A DNA stretch of 64,000 bases from NCBI GenBank assembly GCA_026004395.1, contig BPJB01000001.1, positions 584,910 through 648,909 on the forward strand, read 5' to 3'. The translations under genes and the position numbers were made by a program. A model generated the notes under the pieces. That model was not told the DNA's origin and made no database searches. It saw nothing but the letters and a program-made list of their open reading frames with translations. This DNA comes from Patescibacteria group bacterium (lineage in GTDB: Bacteria; Patescibacteriota; Microgenomatia; Levybacterales; UBA12049). Positions 208 through 42,235 of the stretch are shown in pieces (within the stretch, counting starts at the first letter, position 1; each line of letters begins with the position of its first letter).

Positions 208-291
208 AACTTTCTATAGTACTTGCCTTACGTATCTTTTTCAGTGAGACTGCTTACGTACGGGACAGAGTAACTTTCTTGGCAGGTAAAA

Positions 292-2517: not shown

Positions 2518-2625
2518 TTTTATTTATATTTATAAAATTTAAATTAGCGTAATTAATTTTATTTTTTACTCTTTTGGGAGGGAGTCTTGCTGAAGTGCTA
2601 GCAAGAACTCCCATCCCTCTGAGTA

Positions 2626-24081: not shown

Positions 24082-24174
24082 TGTTGGGTTTTTGTCTTGC
24101 CACGGCCTACACTTTTTATTGTACAGGACGCCCAACGACCGTTCCAATAACTGTATTGTAACCAAAACCTATAT

Positions 24175-24528
24175 TTAGTCAAAATTAACAGTTTTAACCT
24201 CAATAGAGCAACCTTTTTGTTTAATAAATATGTGTTTTAATGAACTTTCAAATTCTTTCTTTGTGCGGTTAACACAAATTGATAAATCGAGATTGACAAA
24301 ACCAATTTCGGGGTAAGTAGGGATAACAAGATGAGATTGGGAAAGTATATAGACAAGAGTAATTCCTGTTGGCTTAAAAATATAAGAAACCTTTTTAACT
24401 ACCTTTAAATCTAAATCATAAATGATGTTGTCTGCCAACTTTTCAACAAACACTAAAGAGTTATCAAATGGTTTTATTTTTATAAGCGCAACAAATTGTC
24501 TAATCAATGGTGTAGATTGGTTTATCAT
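24175..24528 (-). CDS. Pyruvoyl-dependent S-adenosylmethionine decarboxylase proenzyme (SpeH-like, small archaeal/bacterial type).
   Basis: GITLVYILSQSHLVIPTYPEIGFVNLDLSIC corresponds to the AdoMetDC core GVTxVxLLxESHISIHTWPExGYAAVDVFTCG, including the self-cleaving Ser in S-H. The length is 117 aa. Confidence 0.5.
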   Translation of the reverse strand: MINQSTPLIRQFVALIKIKPFDNSLVFVEKLADNIIYDLDLKVVKKVSYIFKPTGITLVYILSQSHLVIPTYPEIGFVNLDLSICVNRTKKEFESSLKHIFIKQKGCSIEVKTVNFD

Positions 24529-25489: not shown

Positions 25490-25756
25490 AGTCTAACCTT
25501 TATTTTATCAAAAAAGCTGTTTGAAGCTACTCGAAATGAATTCTTAGATTACAGTAGTTAGAAGTTGTTGTGTATACTATAGAGTAAGCTCTGGAAATTC
25601 CAGGATATCTAACCAGTTGGCTAGCCTAAAATCGTTCCATTTGTACAGCAAAAGTGGGCAAAATATTCTAATTTATAAATAAATTACTAACTATAATTTA
25701 GAGAAAATTTTTTTATCTGATTTACCATCAATTGCATTTACGACTGACGCAAATAT

Positions 25757-27217: not shown

Positions 27218-27429
27218 GAATATTAATTGATGGGATTATAGACGCCATCTAAGGTGTATGCAAGAAGATTATTTCTTATATTAAATCTTATATTAAAAGA
27301 TTATCAACAAACTCAACTACATTTGAGATGTTTTTATTTTATTGAAATTAATTATTCCAAGTATACAGGTATACCTGTATACTTGGATAAGATTACACAA
27401 TGTAAATAAAGAATATTTCAATAATGCTG

Positions 27430-27501
27430 AGCGGGGAACGGGCATCGCACCCGCGACCTCTTCCTTGGCAAGGAAGCGTTCTACTGCTGAACTACCCCCG
27501 C
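27430..27501 (-). tRNA. tRNA-Gly (anticodon GCC) with an atypical D-loop and T-loop.
   Basis: Minus-strand sequence: GCGGGGG-TA-GTTC-AGCAGTA-GAAC-G-CTTCC-TTGCCAA-GGAAG-AGGTC-GCGGG-TGCGATG-CCCGT-TCCCCGC-T. The T-loop reads TGCGATG in place of the usual TTCRANT, and the D-loop lacks the GG pair. The reverse orientation (Ala-GGC) gives a worse fold. Confidence 0.5.
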
Positions 27502-27754
27502 AATTATATCATCGTAAAGAATGTAATGTTTTTACGAATTTTTCTGCCACTTAGCAAATTCTGAACAAAGATATGAAGATTTAAGCTAAATATTAAAACA
27601 TTAAATCTTGACTGTATTTCATTATAGCAAAATTTAATACTTCATCAAAGAATTATTCTTGAGAAGATAACAAAAAATTTATGAAACTCGTTTAGTAGAA
27701 AATAAACTTAAATAAACTTATAAGGCACAATCAATAGCGCGGTATATAAATAAG

Positions 27755-27827
27755 TGCCGAGGCTCAGAGTCGAACTGAGATCTGATGTTCTTCAGACACC
27801 CGCCGTGACCACCTTGGCTACCTCGGC
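27755..27827 (-). tRNA. tRNA-Phe (anticodon GAA).
   Basis: Minus-strand sequence: GCCGAGG-TA-GCC-AAGGTGGTCAC-GGC-G-GGTGT-CTGAAGA-ACATC-AGAT-CTCAG-TTCGACT-CTGAG-CCTCGGC-A. The D-stem is 3 bp. CCA is not encoded. Confidence 0.55.
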
Positions 27828-28046
27828 TCCTAATATTCATAATATATAGTACTTTTAGGAATATGGTATGGATTGGTAAAAATTATACAATTTTATATAT
27901 CGCAAAAGCAAGATAATCAAAATCTATTTACTGAAAAACTATACATCAACTATCAATTTTTTGTATTATAAAAATATTATAAAAAATCTAAAAGTAGTAT
28001 TCGTGTATAAAATAAAAATCTAAATCAATGCTATATATAGTAAATG

Positions 28047-28120
28047 TGGACGATTAGGGACTCGAACCCCAGACCTTCTCGGTGTAAACGAGACGCTCTA
28101 ACCAGCTGAGCTAATCGTCC
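28047..28120 (-). tRNA. tRNA-Val (anticodon UAC).
   Basis: Minus-strand sequence: GGACGAT-TA-GCTC-AGCTGGTTA-GAGC-G-TCTCG-TTTACAC-CGAGA-AGGTC-TGGGG-TTCGAGT-CCCTA-ATCGTCC-A. Confidence 0.75.
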
Positions 28121-28559
28121 GCATCGCTTGATTATAGCTAAAAAAGGAGACAAGAAGCAATATTTTAGCATTCTAAGCTAATCTTATTTTACCAAAGGAC
28201 AGAGCAAATTACATCACAAATCTAATATAAGATTTAACATTTTTGTTATAATTTTGCATATGCTACTTAGCGTATTGGTGAAGCCAGCTCAAAAATATCC
28301 CGTAATTGCCTGGAATGGAAGTTCAATCGTTATAAAGCTGAAATCACCCCCCAAAGATGGAGCAGTAAATAAAGAACTATAGAAAAACTTGCAGATTTTT
28401 TCGATATTCCCAAAGGAAAAGTAGATATTCTCTCAGGAGCAACAAGTCGCAACAAACGAGTGATAATAGATCTCGATGAAGCAACAATACTAAAAAACTC
28501 TCTACCATCCACGCAAACAAATAATTTTCTAAAAACTAAAAAGGATACTCTGATGAATA

Positions 28560-29132
28560 TCATGTAAGAATAGGGGAGGATGCGCTATCCTCAAGAATCA
28601 AATATCCATCCTCCGTAGGTGTTTTGTCTGCTGAAAAATAATAGCGGATTCCAAAATGCTTAAGAGATTTAGCTATTACTTCTCTTAGCTGGACAACTGT
28701 ATTGCTATTGCTTCTCACAATCTTGAATGCATCCTCAACAATCTTATGAGCAATCCTTGCATCAATTATCTGAAGAGGATCTTTGCCAGTTAACATATGT
28801 ACTCCTCCTTTATCGATCATAACTAGTGCGTTGTATGAATTTTGCGCATAAGCTAGTATATCTGCCTCCGAGATAACAGTAGTTGGAAGATGATTTATAT
28901 CATCTGATGTAGGATGAGTATGAATAAGAGCAAGATTTCTTATACGTGGATCCAAACTCTTAAATCCATGCGGAAGAAATGGAAGACGAAAAGAGGGAGG
29001 ATGTTTGGTATTATTACCATAACAATGTTGCTCTCCTAATCCTGCAAAAATCCTGCTGGTAAGTAACTTTTGACCATCATAAGAAACCATTAATCCATGT
29101 TCTCTTCCTGATGTATGCGTTTGTTGTAACAT
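28560..29132 (-). CDS. Hypothetical protein with a JAB/MPN (JAMM)-like metal motif (RadC-like spacing variant).
   Basis: LALIHTHPTSDDINHLPTTVISEADI gives HxH...SxxD with a longer spacer than the canonical Hx H x7 S xx D. A Glu is present upstream. The assignment is uncertain. Confidence 0.35.
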   Translation of the reverse strand: MLQQTHTSGREHGLMVSYDGQKLLTSRIFAGLGEQHCYGNNTKHPPSFRLPFLPHGFKSLDPRIRNLALIHTHPTSDDINHLPTTVISEADILAYAQNSYNALVMIDKGGVHMLTGKDPLQIIDARIAHKIVEDAFKIVRSNSNTVVQLREVIAKSLKHFGIRYYFSADKTPTEDGYLILEDSASSPILT

Positions 29133-29460
29133 TTCTTCCCAATATTTTTGCGCCAGTTGATCGCGTGGAATACGGATAAATGAGGGAAGTAAATAGCCTT
29201 TCTTTTCTTGACGAAGATCTAATATTTGATGTTGCTGATTAATATATTCCGTGCTTTGCTGATATCTTCCATCTATAGTATACTCAACAAATCAATGATC
29301 TTTGCTATCAATAGAGAAAGCACCCCAAAATTAGAGGAAATAAACAAATATATCTTCGTGCAGTAAAAATACTAAATGCTGTAATAATACACTTTGCACA
29401 AAATTTTTTAGCGCTGGACTAGCTGGAGCGCGGATAAGTCAATTCCGAACAATTTAGTTT

Positions 29461-29545
29461 TGGTGCGGATGAGAGGACTTGAACCTCCACGCCTTACGGC
29501 ACAGCCACCTCAAGACTGCGTGTATACCAATTTCACCACATCCGC
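29461..29545 (-). tRNA. tRNA-Leu (anticodon GAG), type II, CCA encoded.
   Basis: Minus-strand sequence: GCGGATG-TG-GTG-AAATTGGTATAC-AC-G-CAGTC-TTGAGGT-GGCTG-TGCCGTAAGGCG-TGGAGG-TTCAAGT-CCTCT-CATCCGC-ACCA. Confidence 0.75.
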
Positions 29546-29755
29546 TCGCTTACAATATAAACACATTAAGAAAGAGTCTTAACAATTATTTCTCTTAGGA
29601 TAGAACAAATTATAACATTTTTTGGCAAGATCCTAAAGAGATTAACCAAAGAATAATTTAAAACAAAAAAAACGCCGAAATCAACAAATATTGAAATATC
29701 AAATATCTATAATTGGGATTTAGTATGACTCTTGATTTATGATTTATAGATTATT

Positions 29756-31753
29756 CTAATAAACTGCTTTTTGTTCATTTGGAAATAAGTCGAAAATTAA
29801 CATTCTAGCCGGCAAATGTTTTATCATCATCACTTTTTCCCCATCTGGAGAGAATTTAACATTATATACTATTGTTGTTCCTGTATCATATTCTGCTATC
29901 ACGAAAGAATTTCCCTGATGGTTAGTCACTTCTGAAGAGATCACCTTCATCTTGCTACCCTCTGATATTACCAGCATCTTACCATCCGGAGAAAAGTCTG
30001 CTTCACGAATTGTTTCCCCCCAATTACGATATTTCGCTATCACTTTAGGCTTGCCTATCACATTCTTCTCTGTTAGAGAGATAATATTCAAGATGTTATT
30101 ACTTTTTATTGCCACTTTTTGACCATCAGGAGAAAAAGCAAGTACATGAACATTTTTTCTGAACTTGCTCTTGAGGTCATGCTCAGCTATCACTCTAGGA
30201 TAGCCTTTATCATCCTTTTCTGTTAAAGAAATAACTTTTACCACACCATTTATAATCATTAACAACCTTGAACCGTCAGGAGAAAAATGTACTTTTGAAA
30301 TCGATTCTCCGAAATTATACTCAGCAAGCACTTTAGGCTTACCTTCATCATCCTTCTCCACTAGAGAAATAAGTTGCATTTCTCCACCACTAGAGAATAT
30401 TAACAGATTGCAACCATCTGGAGAAAATTTAGCATTAAAACCCCATTCTGCCCATTTTGGGATATCAAACTCAGCTATTATTTCAGGCTTACACTCATCC
30501 TCCTTTTGTGTTAAAGAGATAACTTGTAATCTATTAGTAGAATTATTTATTAATAATACCCTCTCAACATCAATAGAAAGAGTAGAGAAAGTGACTTCAG
30601 GACATTCCGGGGCATACTCAGCAAGCACTTTAGGCTTACCCTCATCATCCTTTTGTGTTAGTGAGATTAGTTGTATTTTTTTACCATAGGCAATTATTAC
30701 CTTTTCACCATCAGTTGAAAAATTACTAAGATTAATGAATAATTTTTCAAAGTCGGGTAAAATATTATCATTTTCTGCAAATATATTTTCTCTAGTTGCT
30801 AGATCATTGATATTATAGATCCTAAAATCATTACGTTTTCCTAAGAGATCAAATAGACTATAAAATCCTTCTTTTACTTTTTTCTCAAGATCATGACCTT
30901 GAATGTATGAGAGCACAACATTTGTCCGATGGAAATTTCCAATATATGCAATTTTTGTAATTTCTGCTTCTGTACTTTCATTTTCTTCTTTTAACTTATT
31001 AGTAAATTCTACTAGATTTTCTGCAGTGCGAATATCTATATAATTAGTAGCATCAGCCAATAATTTATCAGCCAAATTATAATTTGGGTTGGACAGTGAT
31101 CGATAACTTAAAAGAGATTTGATTAAAGACTTATCTCTTTCACTAATATAGACAAGAGGCAAGATGATTCCACACTGCTTTAAAAATTCATTACGATTCA
31201 TTTTTCCTCTTACTGTCTTATATACCAATCGGAAAGAATTATAATCATTCGCATAATTTAGAAATGAATTTAAAATCATGTATAAATTTCCCTCTGGATT
31301 AATACATCCAATCATTTTTCCAGTATATTTGTAATGACTTAATATTGTCTTATAAAGATTATCATAAAAATCAAATTCACGTTCTTTAAGACTACTTATC
31401 TGCGATGCATTAAATCCACCTGGTTCGTATTCTGTTTCATATGGTATATATCGCAACAAAACGATTTCTGCCCAATCAACAATTTCTTTAATCTTTTCTT
31501 TAAGCTCATCTTCTTTCAATGTTCCTACTAATTCTATTTGGCTTTTTTTGTCATCATGAAGACCTAAAAATTTAATTATGCACCCATTGAGCTTTAATTC
31601 AGATTCTATATATTCGGTTTGTTCGTAATATTTCTCCTCGTCGTTTGTCCTTGTGCTTTCTGCTTTTTCTCCAAACTTAAGAGTCAAAAAATCGCGACGA
31701 CCCAAAGATTTCTGAACTAAAGGATGTTGTAAAGCTTGTATTTCTCTTTCCAT
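29756..31753 (-). CDS. Cytoplasmic 665-aa protein with an unassigned N-terminal domain of about 350 aa followed by a 6-bladed beta-propeller built from FSPDG-type repeats (PD40/WD40-like).
   Basis: Six repeats of about 50 aa match the pattern (V/I)ISLT(E/Q)KDDEGKPKV(L/I)AEY...(K/V)xFSPDG(x)x(L/V)(L/M)(I/M). There is no signal peptide. The N-terminal half carries no recognisable motif. Confidence 0.6.
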   Translation of the reverse strand: MEREIQALQHPLVQKSLGRRDFLTLKFGEKAESTRTNDEEKYYEQTEYIESELKLNGCIIKFLGLHDDKKSQIELVGTLKEDELKEKIKEIVDWAEIVLLRYIPYETEYEPGGFNASQISSLKEREFDFYDNLYKTILSHYKYTGKMIGCINPEGNLYMILNSFLNYANDYNSFRLVYKTVRGKMNRNEFLKQCGIILPLVYISERDKSLIKSLLSYRSLSNPNYNLADKLLADATNYIDIRTAENLVEFTNKLKEENESTEAEITKIAYIGNFHRTNVVLSYIQGHDLEKKVKEGFYSLFDLLGKRNDFRIYNINDLATRENIFAENDNILPDFEKLFINLSNFSTDGEKVIIAYGKKIQLISLTQKDDEGKPKVLAEYAPECPEVTFSTLSIDVERVLLINNSTNRLQVISLTQKEDECKPEIIAEFDIPKWAEWGFNAKFSPDGCNLLIFSSGGEMQLISLVEKDDEGKPKVLAEYNFGESISKVHFSPDGSRLLMIINGVVKVISLTEKDDKGYPRVIAEHDLKSKFRKNVHVLAFSPDGQKVAIKSNNILNIISLTEKNVIGKPKVIAKYRNWGETIREADFSPDGKMLVISEGSKMKVISSEVTNHQGNSFVIAEYDTGTTIVYNVKFSPDGEKVMMIKHLPARMLIFDLFPNEQKAVY

Positions 31754-32865
31754 AGAATGGAATATTATAGGTTATTAAGTAATTTTAGTCAAATTATTAA
31801 AGAAACTTATTACATAAATTTCCATATAACTATAAGATATTTTATATATCATAACCAATGAATAAGATTTAAAACAACGGTTTTTATCTGTATTATCTAA
31901 ATATTTGTTTTCAATTCAAAGTATCTTAGGTGTTATCATATTTGCGAAAGCAATAGCGACTTCGGAATTTATTAATATATATTAGAATTAGATCAAAAAG
32001 GAGATATACTAGTTATTTTTTTTGATCTCAAAAATTGAAATTGAAAAAAGTGACTTTTATTATGAACTCATTTAGTCTACTTGTTTATGATTAGCAAGAT
32101 AAAGTTTGTCTTTTTATTGAATTGAATATTTATTCCACTTTCCAAAATCTTTTCCAATTTATCTATATATCATTTTCATAAAACTAGCCAAAAACCAGAA
32201 ATCTTCTCTCTTTCAACTGAAGGTAAAAGGGTACTACTAGTTTTTGGCTAATAATTTAATTAAAGTAAAAAACAAAAAAAATAAAATTAATCAAGTTAAA
32301 AAACTTTTTTTAATAATTTGCTTTTTCTAGAATTAATATGTTAGAGATATCTTTTCTACCATGGAAAATATAAAAAATTTAAAATTTATAGAACTAAAAC
32401 AATAACTCAAGTTTGAACTTAGCTCATGTTGTATTAGCGAAATTTGAATAACTGCAGCCAACTGTTGATAATGGCGGTCAAATCACAAGAAGTAATATAT
32501 ACAACGTATTTCTACAATCAAGCTCGAACCTATTTTAGCAATAATTGCTGACATAAACCAATCACTCCCATTGCCGCCAGCCGACATGCGGCAACCTGCC
32601 TCGCAGAAAACTTTTTCTACTGCTCTGATTATGCGCACGACAACAAGAAATTCTCTAAAGAAAGTTTTTCTGTTCTGCTCTGCGCTGAATTATGAGTGTC
32701 GTGGCTTTACGCTTTCGGCTTGGCTGGATGGTTTTTTACGGTTATTGTATTTTTCTTATCCTTACCACACACTCCCGTCGCGAAAAAGATTAAGAAACTC
32801 CAAGTGTATAAAATACTCGTTGTGCTTTCTCTTCTTGTTTGTTATCATTTGAATGTATATTCAAA

Positions 32866-33175
32866 TATGAAAAAGGAAGAACTCAAAAAGGGACTCAAAA
32901 ATAAGCAAGCCATTCTCGCATGTGCGCGAGAATTCAACATGGTCGGCGACCCGACGCGCCTCAAAATCTGTTATCTCCTGTGCCGACACAAAGAGCTTTC
33001 GGTCAGCGAGATAGCAGAGGTTGTTGGAGTCTCAATTTCTGCTGTTTCGCATACACTGCGCAAGCTAAAAAAGGCGAATATGGTGGAAAGCCACCGGAAA
33101 TCACGCACCGTTTATTACCAACTAAAAAATAGAGGTATTGTTAATATTCTTAGACAAAGATTTGCCAATTTATGA
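32866..33175 (+). CDS. ArsR/SmtB-family metalloregulator, the first gene of the mer island. The track ORF 32696 start is an artifactual upstream extension.
   Basis: The HTH reads MVGDPTRLKICYLLCRHKELSVSEIAEVVGVSISAVSHTLRKLKKANMVES. The ATG at 32866 follows the local GC rise. Confidence 0.7.
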
Positions 33176-33534
33176 ACACACCAGAATCAAGGGTACAGCT
33201 AAAAAGAGTATATGACGATTTTGAAAGTACAGATGGATATAGAGTTCTTATTGACAGATTGTGGCCACGAGGCATATCAAAACAAAAAGCAAAAATAAAC
33301 CTTTGGCTGAAAGATATCGCACCAAGCAACGAATTAAGAAAATGGTTTTCTCATGATCCCCAAAAATGGGAAGAATTTACAAATCGTTATGAGGAGGAGT
33401 TGAAAGAAAAAGAAGATATTGTAAACTCTCTTAAAGAAATTATTGCCAAAGAAAAAATTGTCACTTTATTATTTTCTGCCTCTGATGAAAAACATAACAA
33501 CGCTGTCGCTTTGAAGAAAATATTAAAACTATGA
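33172..33534 (+). CDS. DUF488 (YeaO-like) protein.
   Basis: RVLIDRLWPRGISKQKAKINLWLKDIAPSNELRKWFSHDPQKWEEF matches the DUF488 consensus. The start overlaps the arsR stop. Confidence 0.7.
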   Translation: MNTPESRVQLKRVYDDFESTDGYRVLIDRLWPRGISKQKAKINLWLKDIAPSNELRKWFSHDPQKWEEFTNRYEEELKEKEDIVNSLKEIIAKEKIVTLLFSASDEKHNNAVALKKILKL

Positions 33535-34934
33535 AGACATTTGAACTTATTATTATAGGCGGAGGAGCGGGCGCATTTGCAGCTGCAATCAGAGCCAACG
33601 AACTGAAAGCCAAAACCGCTATGATTAACTCAGGCCTTCCATGGGGCGGTACCTGCGTCAATGTAGGCTGTGTTCCCTCAAAAACGCTTCTTTATGCTAG
33701 TGAAGTTTTATATCACGCAAAACATCATGGTGTAGCTGGTATTGAGCTTGAAATACAAAATTTTGATTTTCAAAAGGTAGTTGAGGATGAACTTTCACTT
33801 GTAGAAAAATTGCGCAATGAAAAATACGAAAAAGTACTGAAAAATTTAGAATATGTAACTGCGATTGAAGGCAGGGCAAAATTCGTTTCTCAGAATGAAG
33901 TAGAGGTAAATGGCGAAAAGTTGAGAGCTGAAAAATTTATCATTGCTGCTGGCTCTACTGCCAATGTTTCGCAAATTGAAGGAATACACGAAGTTGGATT
34001 TATTACACACATTGAAGCACTGCGACTTAATTATCAGCCAAAAGAATTAATTGTAATTGGAGCAGGGCCACTGGGATTAGAATTTGCCCAAATGTTTTCC
34101 CGCTTTGGCACAAAGGTAACAATTTTACAGCGCGGCGATTCAATTTTATCATATGCTGAAAAAGAACTCACTGATCGTCTATCAGAAATACTTTCAAAAG
34201 AAGGAATAACAATCAAGACACATGTTGAAGTAAAAAGCGCTCGCATAGAAGATACAAAAAAAGTTGTTTCCTATCATATAGGCAAATCGCAGGAGGAAGT
34301 ATCTGCAGACGAAATACTTGTGGCTACAGGTAAAACACCCAACACGCATGGACTGGGACTCGATATTGTTGAAGTTGAGGTGAATAAAACTTATGCAATT
34401 ATTGTTAATCAATACTTCCAAACCTCCAATCCGAACATCTTTGCTGTTGGCGATATCACCAATTTGCCACTACGCCTTGAAACAACTGCCGGACGAGAAG
34501 GCACGCTTGCCGCTGAAAACGCACTCAAAGGTACAACACTTTCAATTGACTATCACACCGTACCCTATACGATTTTTACCGACCCTCAGATTGCCGGAGT
34601 TGGCTTTACAGAGGAGAAGCTGATTAAACAAATAGGTGTTTGTGACTGTCGTACGACTTCATTTGCAGATGTACCAAAGGCAATTATCATGCGCCGCACA
34701 GAAGGTCTCATCAAAATGGTGATTCATCCCCAGACAAAGCAAATTTTGGGTGTCCATATTCTCGCACCAAACGCTGGAGAACTTATTGCCGAAGCGATGA
34801 TGCTCATAAAAAACAAAAATACAATTGATGATGTTGTAAACTCTTTGCCAATGTTTCCGACGCTTTCTGAAGCGATCAAAATTACCGCGCTGTCTTTTTC
34901 AAAAGACATTTCAAAATTAAGCTGCTGCATATGA
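33531..34934 (+). CDS. merA: Mercuric reductase core (MerA without the N-terminal NmerA/HMA domain).
   Basis: The FAD site is IIIGGGAGAF. The redox-active disulfide motif GGTCVNVGCVPSK matches MerA exactly. The C-terminus has a vicinal Cys pair (...KLSCCI), the MerA hallmark. The gene is followed by merT and merP. Confidence 0.75.
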   Translation: MKTFELIIIGGGAGAFAAAIRANELKAKTAMINSGLPWGGTCVNVGCVPSKTLLYASEVLYHAKHHGVAGIELEIQNFDFQKVVEDELSLVEKLRNEKYEKVLKNLEYVTAIEGRAKFVSQNEVEVNGEKLRAEKFIIAAGSTANVSQIEGIHEVGFITHIEALRLNYQPKELIVIGAGPLGLEFAQMFSRFGTKVTILQRGDSILSYAEKELTDRLSEILSKEGITIKTHVEVKSARIEDTKKVVSYHIGKSQEEVSADEILVATGKTPNTHGLGLDIVEVEVNKTYAIIVNQYFQTSNPNIFAVGDITNLPLRLETTAGREGTLAAENALKGTTLSIDYHTVPYTIFTDPQIAGVGFTEEKLIKQIGVCDCRTTSFADVPKAIIMRRTEGLIKMVIHPQTKQILGVHILAPNAGELIAEAMMLIKNKNTIDDVVNSLPMFPTLSEAIKITALSFSKDISKLSCCI

Positions 34935-35221
34935 AAAAGAGAATAATCAATTTTAAGCACGCAATTCCGAAAGATATTGAGGAAATTTTAGCGGCATCAC
35001 CAAAATTAAAAGCTAAGTGGGATAATCTCACCCAGTTAGCTCAAAATGAGTGGATTTGCTATGTAACAATAGTCAAGAATAGTAAAACCCGACAAAGACA
35101 CCTAAAACGATTAGAAGAAGATTTACTCAACGGCAAAAAGCGGCCATGTTGCTGGCCTGGTTGTCCTCACCGCAATCAAAATACCCAGAAATGGTTTTTA
35201 AAAACGTACAAAGATAACTAA
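34931..35221 (+). CDS. Small YdeI/OmdA-like protein (weak assignment) located inside the mer operon.
   Basis: The C-terminal motif RPCCWPGCPHR is present. Its position between merA and merT suggests an accessory role. The assignment rests on recall only. Confidence 0.3.
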   Translation: MKKRIINFKHAIPKDIEEILAASPKLKAKWDNLTQLAQNEWICYVTIVKNSKTRQRHLKRLEEDLLNGKKRPCCWPGCPHRNQNTQKWFLKTYKDN

Positions 35222-35263
35222 TTTTGACAACTAAAAATTTATTATCTAAGATGCAAGGATGAG

Positions 35264-35635
35264 ATGAAAGATAACGATAAAACATTTCTTAAAATCGGCA
35301 TTATAGGAGCATTTATCGCATCACTCTGTTGTCTTGGTCCTCTTATTTTGATTGCACTTGGAGTAGGAACTGCGGGAAGTGTGCTCTCAATCGGTTACAA
35401 CAAACAGTATTTCCTCGCTGGCTCGCTTCTGTTCTTTATCGCTGCCACATTGCTTTACCTCAGAAAGAGACAAAGGGAAATTTGTGAATGCGGGGATGGA
35501 TCAGGCAAAATCGATAATAAGAAAATTGGAGTACAAGTTCTGATTTCCCTTTGCGCGATGATTTTGCTGTATCTCTTACTTACATTCTTGCTGGTGCCAC
35601 TGCTTGCACCGCTGGTTTATAAATACCTTTACTAA
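35264..35635 (+). CDS. merT: Mercuric ion transport protein MerT.
   Basis: The first-TM motif IASLCCLGPLILIALG compares with ASACCLGPLVLIALG in Tn501 MerT. A second Cys pair occurs in a cytoplasmic loop (CECGDG). There are 3 TM segments. Confidence 0.7.
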   Translation: MKDNDKTFLKIGIIGAFIASLCCLGPLILIALGVGTAGSVLSIGYNKQYFLAGSLLFFIAATLLYLRKRQREICECGDGSGKIDNKKIGVQVLISLCAMILLYLLLTFLLVPLLAPLVYKYLY

Positions 35636-35638
35636 AAT

Positions 35639-36046
35639 ATGAACAAGAAAATTATTTTTATCGTAATTCCTCTAGTTTTGACTGGTATTATCATCTTGCG
35701 CCTGGCAACGAAAACTAATCAAGCAAACTCTACTCATGCTGTAAATATAAATAAATTGCGTCATGCTACGCTAAAGATTGACGGAATGTACTGTGCATCA
35801 TGTCCTTATAATGTGGAAAACGCACTCAAAGGTACAACAGGTGTTGTGAATGCAACTGTAGGCTTTGTTGGAAGAGAAATCATAAAGGGAATGGTGGAGG
35901 GCAGGGGTGAAGTTGTGTATGACAAAACTAAAACGAGTATAGATAAAATGATTCAGGCAATTTTGCCTTACAAAGGAACTGTATTGAAAGATGAAGCAAC
36001 ACAATCAACTGAGCTTACTCCTATCTCTAAAAACTTCAGTCTTTAA
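35639..36046 (+). CDS. merP: Membrane-anchored HMA-domain mercury-binding protein (MerP-like).
   Basis: There is an N-terminal TM anchor. The HMA motif LKIDGMYCASCPYNVENAL (GMxCxxC) is present. Confidence 0.65.
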   Translation: MNKKIIFIVIPLVLTGIIILRLATKTNQANSTHAVNINKLRHATLKIDGMYCASCPYNVENALKGTTGVVNATVGFVGREIIKGMVEGRGEVVYDKTKTSIDKMIQAILPYKGTVLKDEATQSTELTPISKNFSL

Positions 36047-36639
36047 TCGATCTCTCGAGCGTTTTTCAAAGCGCGAGCCCACCAGAGAAGTTGGATGATC
36101 ATGGCCTCAGCCTTATCTTTTTGCGCTGCAAATAATTCTTTCATATCCATTTTACCAAATAACACTTGGTAATATTGTTCGCCGGGAATGTGAACGGCAT
36201 TTCTGATTGGAGCCATTTGAAGCTCAATTACATTGAGGCGTAGTTGCTCAACAGCGCGCGCACCTCCGACGGTACCGTAGCTTACGAATGCAACCGGCTT
36301 GTTATTCCATTCTTGATACACCCAATCAAGCGCATTTTTAAGGACAGCGGATGTTCCATGATTATATTCTGGTGTCACAATTACAAAAGCATCGCCTTCC
36401 TCTATTTTTTTGGTGAAACGAGATACCGCTTCGTTTTTATATGGTTCTTGCTTGAATGACGGACTCATCGGCTCATTGAAAAACGGCATATCGTAGTCGC
36501 GCAGATCCAGCACCTCGACCGTAACGCCTTCCTGTTTCTTTATTTCTTCGGCAATCCATGCTGCGGCCTTGTCGCTGAAACGACCTTCACGAGTGCTGCC
36601 AACTATTACTTTGATTTGAATTGTTGCCTTGTTTTTCAT
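36043..36639 (-). CDS. NADPH-dependent FMN reductase (ArsH/ChrR-like flavoprotein).
   Basis: IKVIVGSTREGRFSDKAAAWIAEE ... VIVTPEYNHGTSAVLKNALDW is the flavodoxin-like FMN reductase signature. It is co-directional with, and 33 nt downstream of, an arsR gene. Confidence 0.65.
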   Translation of the reverse strand: MKNKATIQIKVIVGSTREGRFSDKAAAWIAEEIKKQEGVTVEVLDLRDYDMPFFNEPMSPSFKQEPYKNEAVSRFTKKIEEGDAFVIVTPEYNHGTSAVLKNALDWVYQEWNNKPVAFVSYGTVGGARAVEQLRLNVIELQMAPIRNAVHIPGEQYYQVLFGKMDMKELFAAQKDKAEAMIIQLLWWARALKNAREID

Positions 36640-36671
36640 AATTTTTATATTAAATTAAGAAATGAGCTTGT

Positions 36672-36968
36672 TTATATCTTTCCTTTTCTTCTCGGCTTGA
36701 GCTCCTCTGAAAGACGCTTGAGAAGCAAAATAGTATGTTCTGCGTTGAGCGTATAATGCACTTCCTGACCTTTACGCTCGTCTTTCACTAAACCCGTCTC
36801 TTTTAGAACGCGCAAATGCTGTGAGACGAGCGGCTGGGATTGCTTGGTTTTTTTAGCCAGTTCGCTAACTGTTTTTGGTCCGGAAAACAACGCCTCCACG
36901 ATACGATAACGTGGAATACTGCCAATGCCCTTACCGAATTTACTTATTTCTTCGCATAAATCTGTCAT
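36672..36968 (-). CDS. ArsR/SmtB-family transcriptional regulator.
   Basis: The HTH reads YRIVEALFSGPKTVSELAKKTKQSQPLVSQHLRVLKETGLVKDERKGQEVHYTLN. Confidence 0.7.
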   Translation of the reverse strand: MTDLCEEISKFGKGIGSIPRYRIVEALFSGPKTVSELAKKTKQSQPLVSQHLRVLKETGLVKDERKGQEVHYTLNAEHTILLLKRLSEELKPRRKGKI

Positions 36969-36991
36969 ACAATAAAAAGATATTAGAATAT

Positions 36992-37004
36992 TAGAATATT
37001 CTTA
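36992..37004. promoter_or_regulatory. Candidate ArsR operator: the palindrome tAGAATATTCTta, 24 bp upstream of the arsR start.
   Basis: agaatattct is a perfect 10-bp palindrome (36993..37002). It is preceded by the direct repeat attagaat-attagaat. Its position overlaps the likely promoter of the divergent arsR-FMN reductase operon. Confidence 0.35.
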
Positions 37005-37203
37005 TATAAAATGTCAAGATCCAATAATTATCTATCAACAAAACCATGTTTAAAAATATCAATTAGGTAGAAGAGAGGATGCGAAAAACGTATGTTGGAG
37101 AATTCCGCTACTGCTGTAAGTGAAGATGATTTCCCCTCTCACACAATTAGCAGGCTATACTTGTACTACAAAGGTGCATCTCAATAAAGGTGAAAATTTT
37201 TTG

Positions 37204-37285
37204 TGCCCAGAAGGAGACTCGAACTCCTAAGCCTTGCGGCACTGCCTCCTGAAGACAGCGTGTTTACCAGTTTCACCATCTGGGC
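37204..37285 (-). tRNA. tRNA-Leu (anticodon CAG), type II.
   Basis: Minus-strand sequence: GCCCAGA-TG-GTG-AAACTGGTAAAC-AC-G-CTGTC-TTCAGGA-GGCAG-TGCCGCAAGGCTT-AGGAG-TTCGAGT-CTCCT-TCTGGGC-A. Confidence 0.75.
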
Positions 37286-37361
37286 AATTCTTAAAGCATT
37301 GTAACAAAGGAGCCTAAACTTGACAACAACTGCTGGATTTGACATTATTAAAAATTAATAC

Positions 37362-37940
37362 ATGAGAAAGTTTTTTCTGCTCACGACTTTCTTCACAACC
37401 GCACCTCTTTTATTTGCTCTCGTTTTAGTATTTTTACTCTTTATTACCTACCATAATTCATATCAAGGGACAATGACTCTAGGAGGAGAGAGAAAAGTAG
37501 CGTTTGCTGCTTTACCTAGTAATCAAAACATTTATGCAGTTTACGTTGCTCCTGCAGATGCGAGGGTTGAGCTTGTACGCCAATTTTTGGCTAAATACAA
37601 CTCCCCACTTGAGCCATATGCTGAGTATCTCGTTAAAAAAGCGCAAGAATATGGACTGGATTTTCGTCTCCTGCCGGCAATTGCTATGCAAGAGTCTAAC
37701 CTTTGCAAGAAAAATAGACCTGAATCACATAATTGCTGGGGATTTGGAATTTATGGGGGAAAATACACTTATTTTGACAGCTACCAACAAGCAATAGACA
37801 CAGTAGCCAAAACACTCTCGCTAAAATACAAAAACAAACATGGACTAGTCACACCTGAGGAAATTCAGAAAATGTACACACCATCCAATGATGGATCATG
37901 GGCATATAGCGTAAACCTCTTCATGGAAAAAATGCAGTAA
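37362..37940 (+). CDS. Membrane-anchored protein with a lysozyme-like (GH73 N-acetylglucosaminidase-like) domain. It is a paralog of 38252..38830.
   Basis: There is an N-terminal TM segment. AIAMQESNLCKKNRPESHNCWGFGIYG resembles the GH73 pattern A..ESgwG...NN.FGI. It shares the motifs YNSPL, YGLD, ES and WG.G.YG with the downstream paralog. Confidence 0.4.
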   Translation: MRKFFLLTTFFTTAPLLFALVLVFLLFITYHNSYQGTMTLGGERKVAFAALPSNQNIYAVYVAPADARVELVRQFLAKYNSPLEPYAEYLVKKAQEYGLDFRLLPAIAMQESNLCKKNRPESHNCWGFGIYGGKYTYFDSYQQAIDTVAKTLSLKYKNKHGLVTPEEIQKMYTPSNDGSWAYSVNLFMEKMQ

Positions 37941-38052
37941 AATAGACTCATAACATTTGTTATATTGATCACTTTTATTATTCAATAGTCAGTTATTGTC
38001 TACAAATTATTCAATTCAAAATGAACAAGCATTTTGTTGAATAACTCAATAC

Positions 38053-38081
38053 TTGACAAACCTATAGTTATTTGATATAAT
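38053..38081 (+). promoter_or_regulatory. Consensus sigma70 promoter: TTGACA, a 17-nt spacer, then the extended -10 TGaTATAAT.
   Basis: TTGACA is at 38053..38058 and TATAAT at 38076..38081, preceded by a TG at 38073..38074. Confidence 0.7.
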
Positions 38082-38087
38082 GCCGAG

Positions 38088-38168
38088 CTAGATCCTGAGG
38101 TTTGTATTCCAACACAGACGTCAGGATTCAAAAAATCCTAATGTCGAAAGACATTAGGATTTTTTTTG
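38088..38168 (+). ncRNA. Short structured leader or sRNA (about 80 nt): a hairpin followed by a strong intrinsic terminator, with attenuator-like alternative pairing. It lies upstream of the 38252 gene.
   Basis: Hairpin 1 is atcctga(22-nt loop)tcaggat. The terminator is aatcctaatgtc-GAAA-gacattaggatt followed by T8 (38134..38167). The 3' arm of hairpin 1 (caggatt) can alternatively pair with the 5' arm of the terminator (aatcct). Two more hairpins (38185..38250) precede the ATG at 38252. Confidence 0.45.
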
Positions 38169-38251
38169 TCATAAAACTCAATCCTTTAGAAACACCTTCG
38201 TTGTTGGGTGTTTCTAAAGGAGAGGCATTAATTTGTGCCTCTTGAGAATTT

Positions 38252-38830
38252 ATGAAAATAAAGCAATTTATTTTCTGCGTCGCTTTCTTACTCCTTATAG
38301 CGACATCTACCTCTAAAACAGTATACGCATTTAAGACATCCACGTCTTCTGCTCCGATAAAATCGGGGTCAGCTATCCTTGCCTTTGATACTCCTCAAGA
38401 TGAGGCAGACCATCGTGTGGAAATTCTTGAGGCTTTCCTCAGAAGTTACAACTCACCTCTTGCAGATGAAGCTCAAACATTTGTTGAAGAGGCGGATAAA
38501 TATGGTCTTGATTGGAAGCTTGTTGTTTCAATTTCAGGTGTAGAATCGTATTTTGGTCATCTTATACCTTATAATTCTTACAATGGATGGGGTTGGGGAG
38601 TTTATGGTAAAAACGTCATTTATTTTAACTCCTGGAAAGATGGGATCCAAACTATCTCCAGAGATCTTCGCGTAAAATATATCAACAAATGGGGTGCCTC
38701 AGATGTATTTAGTATTGGACGATATTACGCAGCAGATCCCCGCTGGGCACATAAAGTGACTTTCTTTATGAAAAAAATAGATCAGTTTGCACTCAACTAC
38801 AGACTGCAAAAGCTTCCTATCACTCTCTAA
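38252..38830 (+). CDS. Secreted lysozyme-like (GH73-like) domain protein. It is a paralog of 37362..37940.
   Basis: The N-terminus MKIKQFIFCVAFLLLIATSTSKTVYA is a signal peptide. SISGVESYFGHLIPYNSYNGWGWGVYG is the GH73-like motif. Confidence 0.4.
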   Translation: MKIKQFIFCVAFLLLIATSTSKTVYAFKTSTSSAPIKSGSAILAFDTPQDEADHRVEILEAFLRSYNSPLADEAQTFVEEADKYGLDWKLVVSISGVESYFGHLIPYNSYNGWGWGVYGKNVIYFNSWKDGIQTISRDLRVKYINKWGASDVFSIGRYYAADPRWAHKVTFFMKKIDQFALNYRLQKLPITL

Positions 38831-38876
38831 ATCGTATATAATTGATATCTAATCCAACAAATCACTCTTACGATAT

Positions 38877-38957
38877 GCCAGGATGGTGAAATGGTAGACA
38901 CGCATGGTTTAGGACCATGTGGGGCAACCCGTGGAGGTTCGAGTCCTCTTCCTGGCA
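38877..38957 (+). tRNA. tRNA-Leu (anticodon UAG), type II.
   Basis: GCCAGGA-TG-GTG-AAATGGTAGAC-AC-G-CATGG-TTTAGGA-CCATG-TGGGGCAACCC-GTGGAGG-TTCGAGT-CCTCT-TCCTGGC-A. Confidence 0.75.
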
Positions 38958-39112
38958 CACAGAAACTGTTTTTAACTTCTAAAACTGCTCTTGTATCTTG
39001 TATATTGAATATCAACAATTTTTAAACAGAAAAAATTAGCAATTATTACATTTTCTAAATAAATCACAACATAATCGACTTAACACTCCAAACATGATAT
39101 AATATTTCCACT

Positions 39113-39940
39113 ATGACTTCGACAATTCAGCGTGAAAATGACGGAACAATCAAACTAACAGTACATATTAGCTGGAATGAGATTAAAAAAACTCAGGAAG
39201 AGATCATGAACAAAGTAGCAAAAACAGCAAAAATACCAGGCTTCAGAGCAGGAAAAGCGCCTAAAAAGTTAGTAGAAGAATCAGCGGACAAACAAAAAAT
39301 TCAGGAAGAGGTCCTCAAACAACTCTTACCTCAAAAATATATAGAAGCAGTTCAGGAACACAATCTCAAACCTATTGTCAATCCTAAAATTCATGTTGAA
39401 AAGCTGGAAGACAACGCAGAGTGGATTTTTACAGCAACAACCTGCGAAATGCCAAAAGTTGAGCTCAATAATTACAAAGACGCTATCAAGGCCATTACTG
39501 CGAAAGCTAAAATCGTTGTTCCGGGCAAAGAACCCCAGGAACCAAAACTCGATGACATCCTGAATGCTTTAATTAAAAGTGTAAAAGTTACTATACCCAG
39601 CATGCTTATTGAACATGAAGTTGATAGACTTCTTTCACAATTATTGGATGAAATTAAAAGACTTGGACTTACACTCGATCAATATCTTGCATCTACAAAC
39701 AGAACTCCAGAAAAACTGCGTAAAGAATATGAGGAGAGAGCTAAAAATGACCTAATTTTAGAGTTTGCGCTTGCACAGATTGCCGAAGCAGAAAAAATTA
39801 CGGTTGATGCGCAAGAAATTGAAGAAGCTATTCAAAAAGCAAAAGACTCAAAAGAAAAAGAACATCTCCAAAATAATAGATATCTTTTAGCAAGTATTTT
39901 AAGACAGCAAAAGACGCTTGATTTCTTACGCAGTTTGTGA
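39113..39940 (+). CDS. tig: Trigger factor (short form lacking the PPIase domain).
   Basis: The N-terminal ribosome-binding signature IPGFRAGKAPKKLVEE (GFRxGxxP) is present. The 275-aa length corresponds to the N and C domains only. Confidence 0.65.
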   Translation: MTSTIQRENDGTIKLTVHISWNEIKKTQEEIMNKVAKTAKIPGFRAGKAPKKLVEESADKQKIQEEVLKQLLPQKYIEAVQEHNLKPIVNPKIHVEKLEDNAEWIFTATTCEMPKVELNNYKDAIKAITAKAKIVVPGKEPQEPKLDDILNALIKSVKVTIPSMLIEHEVDRLLSQLLDEIKRLGLTLDQYLASTNRTPEKLRKEYEERAKNDLILEFALAQIAEAEKITVDAQEIEEAIQKAKDSKEKEHLQNNRYLLASILRQQKTLDFLRSL

Positions 39941-39956
39941 TAGATTGCAGCCAAAT

Positions 39957-40640
39957 ATGGCAAGCACCAAACTCACAACGCTTCTAAAGCAACAAATTGC
40001 TGCAAATAACAATCATATCGAGACAGGAAAGTCTCGAGTCTCTGATATCCCTAAAGAATTTGTCCAAGAGGTCAAACAAAACGCAACGGCAATGACCAAT
40101 GATTTTTTTAATCAATTGTTAGGTATAGAAAATTTTATTACTACAAATACCTCTAAGCAAACTGAGGTTGAGATGAAGCCGGGTCAAGAATTTACTCTTA
40201 CACACAAATCAAAAGAATCCAATAAAAATAAAAGTGAACGCAAGGATGCAATTGCTCCTGCTATTAATTACCATGAACAAATAGCACGAAGCAGCGAACA
40301 GTCTAACAAAAAAGAGATTCGCGAAATACAATTTCAAATGCAACAAATAATGGATGAATTAAAACGTCTTGTTGATTCGTCACAGAAGATTATGCAAGTT
40401 CAGTATGCTGAGATAAGTGTTCAAAAAACGCCCCCAACGGTTGGCAAATATCATCTGAATTTTTTTTCATGGATGCTCTCTGTGATTAGTGATGCTCGCA
40501 GAAGAGTAGAGGATTCAGGCGCATGGCTTGCTGTCATGAGAAGCAAAAAAGGTAAAAAGGATTTCTGGAGTATCTTCAAAAAAAATGGTACATCCTTTAG
40601 TATGTCCAACGAGAGATTTGTGGCTATACAAACAGGTTAA
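39957..40640 (+). CDS. Hypothetical protein (start probably the ATG at 39957, MASTKL...).
   Basis: It is 228 aa and Lys/Gln-rich. No motif was recognised. The track ORF start at 39918 overlaps tig. Confidence 0.35.
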   Translation: MASTKLTTLLKQQIAANNNHIETGKSRVSDIPKEFVQEVKQNATAMTNDFFNQLLGIENFITTNTSKQTEVEMKPGQEFTLTHKSKESNKNKSERKDAIAPAINYHEQIARSSEQSNKKEIREIQFQMQQIMDELKRLVDSSQKIMQVQYAEISVQKTPPTVGKYHLNFFSWMLSVISDARRRVEDSGAWLAVMRSKKGKKDFWSIFKKNGTSFSMSNERFVAIQTG

Positions 40641-41269
40641 TTTATAGATCTTATTAAATGAAAACTTTCGTTCCATATTTGCATCTTCCATCCTTTAGCG
40701 GTTAATTCACAAAGAGAAATGCTAGCATGATCCATCTGAGAAAAGGTATCAAAGCGGGAGTATTCCTCTGCTGTAACGTACTTTCCCAGCGCCATGACTA
40801 AAAAAACCATTGTCAAAAAATGACTATGCGTCACAACCACAATATCTTTTTCTTGTCTTTGATTTAGGTATGACAGTGCATTTATTGCTCGTTTCTTAAC
40901 ATCGGTAAAGTTCTCTTCATCAGAGTAGTGCCATGCGGGGTAAGACCACTTTGCAAGAAGTAATTTTTGGATATTTTTTATCTTGGGATCATCAATACTT
41001 CTTCCCTCTAATTCTTTGGGTAATCTGACTTCTGTAAAAAGTTCATTAATCTCAACTTTCTTATTAGACGATTTGGCTATCTCCTCAGCTGTTTCTATTG
41101 CTCTTTCAAGAGGACTTGAGATTATCACATCAAATGAGATTTTAGAAAACTTCTCTGCAAGAATTAAAATATCTTGATACCCATCATCTGTCAAAGGAGA
41201 TTCAGGACGCTCATAAATATTATCACAATAATCCTGACTCTCACCATGTGTGACAAAATAAACTTTCAT
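40637..41269 (-). CDS. Histidine phosphatase (phosphoglycerate mutase-like) superfamily protein with a non-canonical catalytic motif.
   Basis: MKVYFVTHGESQDYCDN shows THG in place of the canonical RHG. The downstream PLERAIETAE and VVTHSHF motifs fit His phosphatase branch 1. Confidence 0.5.
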   Translation of the reverse strand: MKVYFVTHGESQDYCDNIYERPESPLTDDGYQDILILAEKFSKISFDVIISSPLERAIETAEEIAKSSNKKVEINELFTEVRLPKELEGRSIDDPKIKNIQKLLLAKWSYPAWHYSDEENFTDVKKRAINALSYLNQRQEKDIVVVTHSHFLTMVFLVMALGKYVTAEEYSRFDTFSQMDHASISLCELTAKGWKMQIWNESFHLIRSIN

Positions 41270-42235
41270 AACATTGTATATTATCACACATATTATCATT
41301 CATTCATCTTAGAAAATTAGACACCTCAAACTTTCAACAAAAAATAATATCGAATATATTTGAAATACAGTTCTGTGCCCCTCATCAGTGTCTTAATTAC
41401 CAACGCTGCTGGAGTAGTTTTAAGAGAGTTCTTTAAAATCTTACCTCTGTAGTCAGCCAGAACAAAACATTGCTATTGCAAGCATGAAATATTATATTCA
41501 GCATGATTTTGCAGTTGATAAACATGAGTAAACAGTCATTGCATGTATGATCTCTGTGTGAGGTTTTTTGTATGGGGGAGATTCTTACATACGAATCCAA
41601 AATAGTATTTCCCATACAGGAGGAAAAAATGCATTTTCCTGAACGGATAACTATATCTCATCAGCCGCTCCTGCCAGACGTCTGTACACCTGCAAAAGCA
41701 TCTAATATCCAACAATGTGGAGAAAAAATAAGAATTCGTTTTGGAGTTTGTGATATTGCTATCGCACAACTGAAAAGAAAATGAGCAATTAGTTACTTAT
41801 AATCTTTTAGGTATGTAGCGGTAAGGAATCTTATTAATGAAAAAATATATCCCAATAAACATAATTCAATAAATATAATCTTGTTTTGGCACATCTAGGT
41901 GTAAGCCCAAATGCTGCCTTTGACTGCCTCAGAAAACAACTCTCACAACAATATACAATCAGCGATATAGCACGCTCCTGATGATTTTTTTACAAGAGAA
42001 AATCAAAAGAAAGTAAATTATTTATATACCTACCTTCAATTCTTTGTTCAATATTCTCCTGATAAAAACTATATATAAATAGTAGACTTGATCTAAGAAG
42101 AAAAGATGATGTTGGTGAAATGCTCATTGATACAACAGGAGTAACATTCTTACGAAGAGAATCTCACTCTCCATCCCAAAATCATGTAGAATTCGTACCC
42201 ATACGACAGGCAAAGTAGAGATCACTTACAAATTC

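Follow-up and report, generated by a model that had tools for sequence, protein, structure and literature searches.

We examined a window of 64,000 nucleotides (nt) from a Patescibacteria group bacterium (assembly GCA_026004395.1, contig BPJB01000001.1, positions 584,910 to 648,909 of the forward strand), one that belongs to the candidate phyla radiation (CPR). The subject of this analysis is a cassette of eight genes that resembles mercury-resistance (mer) operons and lies between two tandem tRNA-Leu genes; unless a locus identifier is given, coordinates are positions in this 64-kb window. The source metagenome-assembled genome (MAG), mg089, was obtained from Katase hot-spring sediment at 52 °C and has a size of ~1 Mb, and the paper describing it makes no mention of mercury. 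Open reading frames (ORFs) and searches with Pfam and NCBIfam profiles recovered all genes named in a preliminary description of this DNA, at the positions then assigned to them, and all eight cassette ORFs are intact (Table 1). The genes for ArsR2 and the FMN reductase form an operon that runs convergent with the mer genes, and tRNA-Leu(cag) lies 234 nt from the ArsR2 start codon. As previously remarked, no integrase or transposase domain is present among the island ORFs. Likewise, tblastn with serine recombinases found no recombinase remnants in 29500-32600, which includes the AT-rich spacer, or in the rest of the window, and a search for structured RNA in the leader and spacer with Rfam returned only tRNA.

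Table 1. Features of the region between and including the two tRNA-Leu genes (window coordinates).
Feature	Position	Strand	Description	Evidence
tRNA-Leu(gag)	29461..29545	-	left anchor of insertion site	ARAGORN
Sibling-absent segment	29650..37202		~7.55 kb	blastn vs sibling contigs
Orphan beta-propeller	29756..31753	-	WD40/PD40-like, 665 aa	Pfam matches weak, sub-threshold
AT-rich spacer	31754..32502		~23.6% GC, without recognisable gene	
Conserved terminal motif	32503..32557	+	core CTCGAACCTATTTTAGCAA at 32523-32541	nhmmer E=1.5e-13
Non-coding leader	32558..32866	+	40.6% GC, GC-rich hairpin remnants	
Palindrome TTGAAT-N4-ATTCAA	32849..32864	+	candidate ArsR1 operator, overlaps promoter region	
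ArsR1	32867..33175	+	ArsR/SmtB-type regulator, 102 aa	HTH_5 2e-14
DUF488 protein	33172..33534	+	120 aa, accessory	PF22752/PF04343
MerA	33531..34934	+	core mercuric reductase, 467 aa	TIGR02053
YdeI/OmdA-family protein	34931..35221	+	96 aa	PF13376 6.2e-14
MerT-like protein	35264..35635	+	predicted Hg(II) transporter, 123 aa	PF02411
HMA protein	35639..36046	+	membrane-anchored, 135 aa, MerP analogue	PF00403
FMN reductase (FMN_red)	36043..36639	-	NAD(P)H-dependent, 198 aa	PF03358 3.7e-42
ArsR2	36672..36968	-	ArsR/SmtB regulator, 98 aa, one Cys	HTH_5 1.5e-15
Unique spacer	36969..37202		234 nt, 30% GC, ArsR2 to tRNA; siblings without counterpart	
tRNA-Leu(cag)	37203..37285	-	right anchor, 3' end toward island	ARAGORN + Rfam

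The central enzyme scores 524.7 bits against the TIGR02053 equivalog model of MerA (cut-off 454.45), with all other flavoprotein models below their own cut-offs. It is a core MerA without an NmerA domain and with a C-terminal vicinal cysteine pair (CVNVGC at residues 42-47; CC at 465-466), in accordance with the preliminary description. Alignment to the structures 1ZK7, 4YWO and 5X1Y allowed us to place its functional residues. The redox pair C42/C47 in GGTCVNVGCVPSK corresponds to C207/C212 of the Bacillus enzyme and C136/C141 of the Tn501 enzyme, and C465/C466 (in KLSCCI) align with the CC pair in each of the three structures (Bacillus 628/629, Tn501 558/559). Y99 (in NEKYEKV) aligns with residue 100 of the 1ZK7 chain, equivalent to Tn501 Y194 (Bacillus 264), and F442 (in PMFPT) occupies the position of Tn501 Y535 and Bacillus 605, with the archaeal-type Phe that is also seen in 4YWO. 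The account of MerA by Christakis, Barkay and Boyd (2021, PMC8261052) names four defining features, namely the redox pair, the Tyr, the Tyr/Phe and the C-terminal CC, and all four are present here. A dN/dS ratio of 0.15 relative to the 95%-identical copy in L082, a contig from another sample, suggests that MerA has been maintained.

The MerT-like protein carries the cysteine motif previously pointed out (ASLCCLGP at residues 19-26, in the first membrane helix) and a further cysteine pair, CxC, in a loop (CECGDG at residues 76-81), corresponding to the pair that MerT has in the cytoplasmic loop between helices 2 and 3; both motifs are kept in its 75-77% identical counterparts in L002, L014 and L084. 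It scores 33.3 bits against PF02411 (gathering threshold 32.9) and 38.8 against the NCBIfam MerT model NF010314 (cut-off 150), and a promoter-like site lies ahead of its gene at 35224-35252. The next protein matches PF00403, contains GMYCASC and begins with a hydrophobic helix, as expected for the membrane-anchored MerP-like HMA protein that had been proposed. This helix suggests that the protein may be tethered outside the cell. The HMA protein is 57-71% identical in the same three loci and reaches 35.3 bits against TIGR02052 MerP (cut-off 92.55) and 17.4 against the Gram-positive MerP model (cut-off 110); given these sub-cut-off equivalog scores, we use the names 'MerT-like' and 'MerP-like'. 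A perfect 24-nt direct repeat, GAAAACGCACTCAAAGGTACAACA, which encodes ENALKGTT, occurs in merA (34515-34538) and again in the HMA gene (35816-35839). Other CPR HMA genes have ENALKDT(P/S) at the matching position, and the repeat therefore looks like a gene-conversion tract from merA.

Both regulators exceed the cut-off of 55 bits for NF033788 (80.6 for ArsR1, 74.6 for ArsR2), bearing out their earlier assignment to the ArsR type. ArsR1 contains three cysteines, C19, C35 and C39, in a motif (CAxEF...KICYLLC) that is kept in CPR cassettes. With respect to the ELCVCDL sequence of R773 ArsR, which we take to be the classical arsenite site, it has a Ser in place of Cys. The palindrome 3 nt upstream of the ArsR1 start has a single exact copy in the window and is also found just upstream of arsR in seven other cassettes on different contigs (L002, L005, L007, L012, L049, L082 and L180), making it a good operator candidate. 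A further promoter-like site precedes ArsR2 (37017-36988). The start of ArsR1 at 32867 was also chosen by an independent gene call on L001, a contig from the same sample. A longer reading of ArsR1 as a 159-aa membrane-linked protein was rejected, as 1-nt indels break the upstream frame in the 96%-identical L082; with such frame-breaking indels, the leader is non-coding. In L082 itself, a 15-nt insertion removes the ArsR1 ATG (634-700) and a 1-nt insertion in an A-run (~1240-1290) causes a frameshift near the end of DUF488, lesions that could represent early decay or assembly error.

Among the fetched cassettes, the DUF488 gene precedes merA elsewhere in L012 and L082 only, and our literature search for DUF488 found nothing tying it to mercury. 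The YdeI/OmdA gene is not present in the other fetched cassettes, except for an ORF start at that position in L082. We considered its CCWPGCPH sequence as a candidate Hg-specific site and rejected it: across 30 diverse members of the family, C43, C73, C74, C78 and H80 hardly vary, and the motif thus provides no mercury-specific information. These two genes are lineage-specific passengers, added later in this lineage. The FMN reductase is 83% identical in L010, which shares the order ArsR then FMN_red, and the pair appears to be a second, co-transferred redox or metal-stress module. Other CPR cassettes have accessory genes of their own, including a 73-aa MerF-like protein with a CC motif (L004 7770-7991), a ~165-aa conserved membrane protein directly after merA (L004, L011, L016 and L021), and CcdA/DsbD-like and thioredoxin-like genes (L010 6634-7941). 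The arsR-merA core is accompanied by a modular set of accessory genes.

These observations bear on whether the reductase and its partners act on mercury at all, or rather on another thiol-reactive substrate or in general redox or metal stress, in which case 'mer' would be a label only. Such a role would be in line with regulators of the ArsR rather than the MerR type, with the scores of the MerT-like and HMA proteins under the equivalog cut-offs, with the FMN reductase beside merA and the thioredoxin- or CcdA-like genes of other CPR loci, and with our finding no assayed member of the CPR MerA clade in the literature. However, MerA lies above the curated equivalog threshold, and its C-terminal vicinal cysteines and Tyr/Phe pair set MerA apart from other flavoprotein disulfide reductases. 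Moreover, a CC-motif transporter and a CxxC metallochaperone are co-encoded with it, and in Sulfolobus and Streptomyces the regulation of mer genes by repressors of the ArsR type is well established (Boyd and Barkay 2012, PMC3466566). We accordingly regard a non-mercury role as quite unlikely.

Comparison with sibling genomes showed where this region differs from them. Sibling contigs were found via the trigger factor gene 2 kb to the right of the island, and three of these, L093 (~92% nucleotide identity to the window) and L088 and L089 (~82-83%), are collinear with the window over 24054-29649 and 37200-41293, with the same tRNA order, and lack the segment in between. This bears out the horizontal acquisition that had been proposed and rules out the presence of the island at the same locus in all relatives. 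In blastn comparisons, the window blocks 29463-29649 and 37200-41293 match all three siblings, with ~80 nt of sibling spacer left unaligned between the blocks, and the match to the siblings picks up again precisely at the tRNA-Leu(cag) 3' end. The distance from tRNA-Leu(gag) to tRNA-Leu(cag) is 173 nt in L088 and L089, where both genes are on the contig, versus 7,657 nt here, which gives an insertion of ~7.55 kb. Thus, the cassette was correctly recognized, but the segment absent from siblings is considerably larger than the 4.4 kb first attributed to the island: it consists of an orphan beta-propeller gene, a 0.75-kb AT-rich spacer and the mer/FMN-reductase cassette. The sole match of the beta-propeller among 5.8 billion proteins was the orphan protein itself. 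Its gene has host-like codon usage, with a third-position GC content (GC3) of 0.24, and contains five to six internal repeats of ~147 nt. Beyond the siblings, L082 contains the island with the same left flank.

A 7-nt match to the tRNA 3' end, ctcgaac, had been noted at the left border. It is indeed there, as part of a conserved ~55-nt motif (32503-32557, see below), and it is not an att repeat; a search for direct repeats of at least 13 nt between the 3' end of tRNA-Leu(cag) and either border found none.

The composition of the island gives a milder picture than the one initially drawn. Elevated GC is evident (39.8% vs 35.0% in the rest of the window), and 32560-36970 has the highest GC among 596 sliding 4.4-kb windows (~2.8 standard deviations, sd), but the contrast of 45-50% with 30% estimated by eye was too strong, as 45-47% is reached in two 400-nt windows only. 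The step on the left is largely owed to the AT-rich spacer (31754-32559, 23.6% GC). On the right, the fall reported at ~36970 is a dip to 30% over 234 nt, after which GC stands at 37-38% for 2 kb. The tetranucleotide deviation of the island is ~2.5 sd and ranks fifth to seventh among 4.4-kb windows taken every 400 nt. Against a host GC3 of 0.26 +/- 0.04, the values are 0.40-0.45 for ArsR1 (taken with its start at 32867), MerT, FMN_red and ArsR2, 0.31 for MerA, and host-like for DUF488 and the HMA protein. The near-host codon usage of MerA, HMA and DUF488 indicates that the acquisition was not very recent.

Given that the source is a metagenome-assembled genome, and that the composition is deviant with an AT-rich junction, the possibility arises that foreign DNA was joined to a CPR contig during assembly or binning. 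This is highly improbable: a long-read contig of 1.08 Mb and L001, an independent assembly of 12.9 kb from the same sample, both contain this sequence, L082 from another sample shows the same left junction, and both flanks are syntenic with the siblings up to the tRNA genes.

As to the origin of the cassette, the nearest relatives of MerA, which we inspected for a donor lineage, did not yield an outside donor, all of them being from CPR. One relative is 95% identical and is followed by many at 77-84% from Saccharibacteria, Magasanikbacteria, Nealson-, Vogel-, Berkel-, Harrison- and Kerfeldbacteria and others, with a few bins among the MerA relatives bearing non-CPR labels. Outside this clade, identity among species representatives drops to 59% and then to at most 48% in archaea and Chloroflexi. 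The neighbouring trigger factor has matches at 96% and 89%, then at most 67%, and its best named matches are from Levybacteria, from which the host appears to be Microgenomates/Levybacteria-like. As a housekeeping baseline, L185, the sole fetched CPR contig that shares genes with the window, gives 51% for threonyl-tRNA synthetase, 43% for initiation factor 3 and 31% for trigger factor. The non-coding leader itself can be aligned across classes: 32506-32875 is 72% identical to L004 7066-7438 (Magasanikbacteria) and 67% to L083 7277-7705 (Saccharibacteria). This alignment of non-coding DNA is, in our view, the strongest evidence for a shared CPR origin. The donor is not an outside lineage but a gene pool common to CPR classes. 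The merA genes of the clade (the 76-83% group) have 45-49% GC regardless of whether the host flank has 35% or 58%; merA here has 40%, which fits an older acquisition, partly ameliorated toward host composition.

A decaying version of the cassette is found in L083 (9401-9621): after merA, the first 26 merT codons are fused to the last 25 HMA codons, and next come 52 nt left over from the 3' end of the FMN-reductase gene, in the same order as here. The unit leader-arsR-merA-merT-HMA-(convergent FMN reductase) was therefore assembled before reaching both lineages. A different version, with an 81% identical MerA, occurs in other Patescibacteria genomes (L084-L087, e.g. L084 2722-10811), where arsR-merA-merT-HMA directly follows a different large serine recombinase. 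The neighbours of the latter are a CI/LexA-like repressor, a Cro-like helix-turn-helix protein, RecT and an FtsK/PDDEXK protein, and then a truncated Mg-chelatase/ComM-like gene. The arrangement resembles that of a prophage or integrative element which carries the mer cassette as cargo at its end. A search for MerA in viral contigs found none.

It may be asked whether the cassette was instead ancestral, inherited vertically and deleted in the siblings. The near-host codon usage of MerA, HMA and DUF488 would agree with such a history, as would the same left flank beside the island of a relative from elsewhere, L082, and the siblings number only three contigs. However, the entire segment is missing from siblings at two distances (92% and 82%), with the tRNA-Leu genes 173 nt apart in L088 and L089; MerA and the leader are far closer to other CPR classes than are the flanking housekeeping genes; and related cassettes occupy different loci in other genomes. 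Ancestry followed by loss is therefore an unlikely account.

We consequently favor, with a probability of about 0.85, the reading that this is an intact Hg(II)-resistance cassette of a type shared among CPR, horizontally acquired and recombinase-less, situated between two tandem tRNA-Leu genes. In the predicted pathway, ArsR1 would bind the palindrome and repress the operon until Hg(II) binding by its conserved cysteines releases it. The membrane-anchored HMA protein would capture Hg(II) outside the cell via its CxxC and hand it to the CC in the first helix of the MerT-like protein, from which it would pass to the cytoplasmic CxC loop. MerA C465/C466 could then carry Hg(II) to the C42/C47-FAD site for reduction by NAD(P)H to volatile Hg(0). 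The cassette probably arrived within, or beside, the 7.55-kb segment absent from siblings, and the large serine-recombinase modules found near its terminus in other CPR genomes would be the likely agents of spread.

Several points weigh against this reading. The mercury function is assigned through homology, and the MerT-like and HMA proteins are far under the NCBIfam MerT and MerP equivalog cut-offs. The compositional signal is modest and differs by gene, MerA, HMA and DUF488 being near host codon usage. The siblings are metagenome contigs and not complete genomes, and the orphan beta-propeller and AT-rich spacer may or may not share the arrival event of the cassette. Finally, the window has one terminal motif only, without a right-hand copy, a target duplication or a recombinase remnant, and the mechanism of insertion is therefore drawn from other loci.

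Homology to other CPR cassettes in nucleotide alignments starts at this motif, tTGGTGTATtTATACAACCACGCTCGAACCTATTTTAGCAAaAAT, which is kept to the nucleotide across CPR classes. A search with nhmmer with filters off found no right-hand copy in the window, even a degenerate one, leaving 32503-32557 as the sole copy, and inverted copies occur downstream of merA in L005 and L021. The exact core 19-mer CTCGAACCTATTTTAGCAA was present in at least 120 metagenome contigs (the family comprises loci L004, L005, L021, L083 and L095-L214). It is found in CPR loci of Saccharibacteria, Magasanikbacteria and Colwellbacteria (L004, L021 and L083), with a near-exact motif copy in a Harrisonbacteria locus, and in the motif-bearing L208 a cargo protein clusters at 90% identity with a Paceibacterota MAG protein. 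The motif was not recovered from 2.9 million viral contigs, and the family was not found in Rfam or in the searchable literature. In the 120 contigs listed, arsR-merA follows the motif in one, and the other downstream genes are mutually unrelated.

Among the matches listed, 11 contigs have two copies of the motif, of which 10 are convergent, one divergent and none direct. Eight of the convergent pairs bracket cargo of 1.8-4.3 kb; the other two (L111 and L178) are ~180-nt short forms consisting of arms only. The cargo found within inverted pairs is of unrelated kinds: genes for restriction-modification, a ribonucleotide reductase or a radical-SAM enzyme, and arsR-merA. Arm lengths in the six pairs examined range from 190 to 420 nt, with 97-100% identity between arms; in the four checked the arms start at the motif, which forms their outer tip. 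In 27 of 130 copies among the matches listed, a tRNA gene is located no more than 400 nt from the outer side, far above chance expectation, and the cassettes of L004 and L098 sit against tRNA-Leu genes with the same arrangement as in this window. No target-site duplication was seen at these loci. The motif might have a role as promoter or leader.

Among 78 motif copies whose outer flank extends for at least 1.5 kb, 23 have a large serine recombinase encoded there, as opposed to one of 74 copies on the inner side (both among the matches listed). Within the main group these recombinases share 73-89% identity, and they reside in a module of ~1.85 kb with perfect ~135-nt inverted repeats set ~1,583 nt apart, one arm ending a few bases into the motif and the other encoding the recombinase C-terminus (L083 5385-7277; L171 12609-14500; L194 89-1978; also L118, L166, L178, L109 and L156). 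Both orientations of the module are found among the loci, which would fit an invertible recombinase module. When L198 and L158 were compared for such an inversion, the difference was found to sit at a contig end. A parallel case is L083, with tRNA-Val followed by the recombinase module, the motif, the leader, arsR and merA. These arrangements lead us to suggest, tentatively, that 32503-32557 might represent one terminus of an undescribed family of CPR cargo cassettes, with recombinases abutting ~30% of the copies. If the recombinases move or switch cassettes, this would constitute a dedicated route of gene exchange among CPR, of which the present mer island would be a relic without a recombinase. 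Such a route would explain how MerA of ~80% identity and ~47% GC came to be in hosts of 35%-58% GC.

For this motif family only, mobile insertion cassettes (MICs) and cargo bounded by miniature inverted-repeat transposable elements (MITEs) offer an analogy, with inverted-repeat arms around passenger genes, no transposase inside and arms-only short forms, as do Hin-type invertible modules, in which a serine-recombinase gene lies in inverted repeats beside regulated or cargo DNA. Unlike any of these, the present family combines 190-420-nt arms of 97-100% identity with a large serine recombinase, the C-terminus of which is encoded inside one arm.

The closest known counterpart of the cassette is the CPR MerA clade (K12-K14, together with further Group B sequences from CPR) described, with inferred lateral transfer, in the MerA phylogeny of PMC8261052. 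As MerA is annotated in many CPR MAGs and this clade was published in 2021, the presence of a mer system in a CPR genome, which the preliminary description had singled out, is not new or in itself notable. As here, these are core MerAs without NmerA from CPR genomes, which group with archaeal-type MerA, have Phe at Bacillus position 605 and show inferred lateral spread. To that treatment of MerA phylogeny the present locus adds the ArsR, MerT-like, anchored HMA and FMN reductase genes, the empty-site comparison and the terminus. The mer operons of Sulfolobus solfataricus and Streptomyces lividans (PMC3466566) likewise have ArsR/SmtB in place of MerR and a simple core MerA. In that 2012 survey the presence of ArsR correlated negatively with MerT and MerP; contrary to this trend, ArsR, MerT-like and MerP-like proteins occur together here, and ArsR1 has three other conserved cysteines.

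The Tn21/Tn501 mer operons of Proteobacteria (merR-T-P-A-D) share with this cassette the principle of an external Hg(II) binder, a CC transporter and a cytoplasmic reductase with a C-terminal CC. However, MerR, MerD and NmerA are lacking here, as are a Tn3-type transposase, a resolvase and 38-bp inverted repeats, and in place of their soluble, periplasmic MerP there is an HMA protein tethered by a membrane helix. With tRNA-linked genomic islands the locus has in common its strain-specific presence, its position abutting a tRNA 3' end, its deviant composition and its resistance cargo; it differs from them in that an integrase and a direct repeat of the tRNA 3' end are lacking, and in being inserted in the spacer between two tRNA genes. 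Beyond these precedents, the analysis provides the empty-site demonstration of gain, the corrected extent of 7.55 kb, the origin in a shared pool and the recurrent motif with its recombinase partner. The empty-site comparison indicates that a hot-spring CPR genome of 1 Mb gained a complete detoxification module from a cross-class CPR pool. Gene exchange in these reduced, probably symbiotic bacteria is poorly understood, and a recurrent terminus associated with tRNA genes and with one family of large serine recombinases offers a concrete point at which it can be tested.

Two further features were noted outside the island. The trigger factor (39113-39940) used to find the siblings is a protein of 275 aa with N- and C-terminal domains and no FKBP/peptidyl-prolyl isomerase domain, and all its close homologues are alike; the Patescibacteria trigger factor of L084 has 429 aa and a weak FKBP match. 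At the left end of the window, positions 1-1600 exceed the island in tetranucleotide deviation, and 1-4000 show the strongest such deviation in the window, at 38-41% GC. Neither of the two long ORFs that it covers (292-2517 and 2626-3882) has a Pfam match, and these positions may likewise be of foreign origin.

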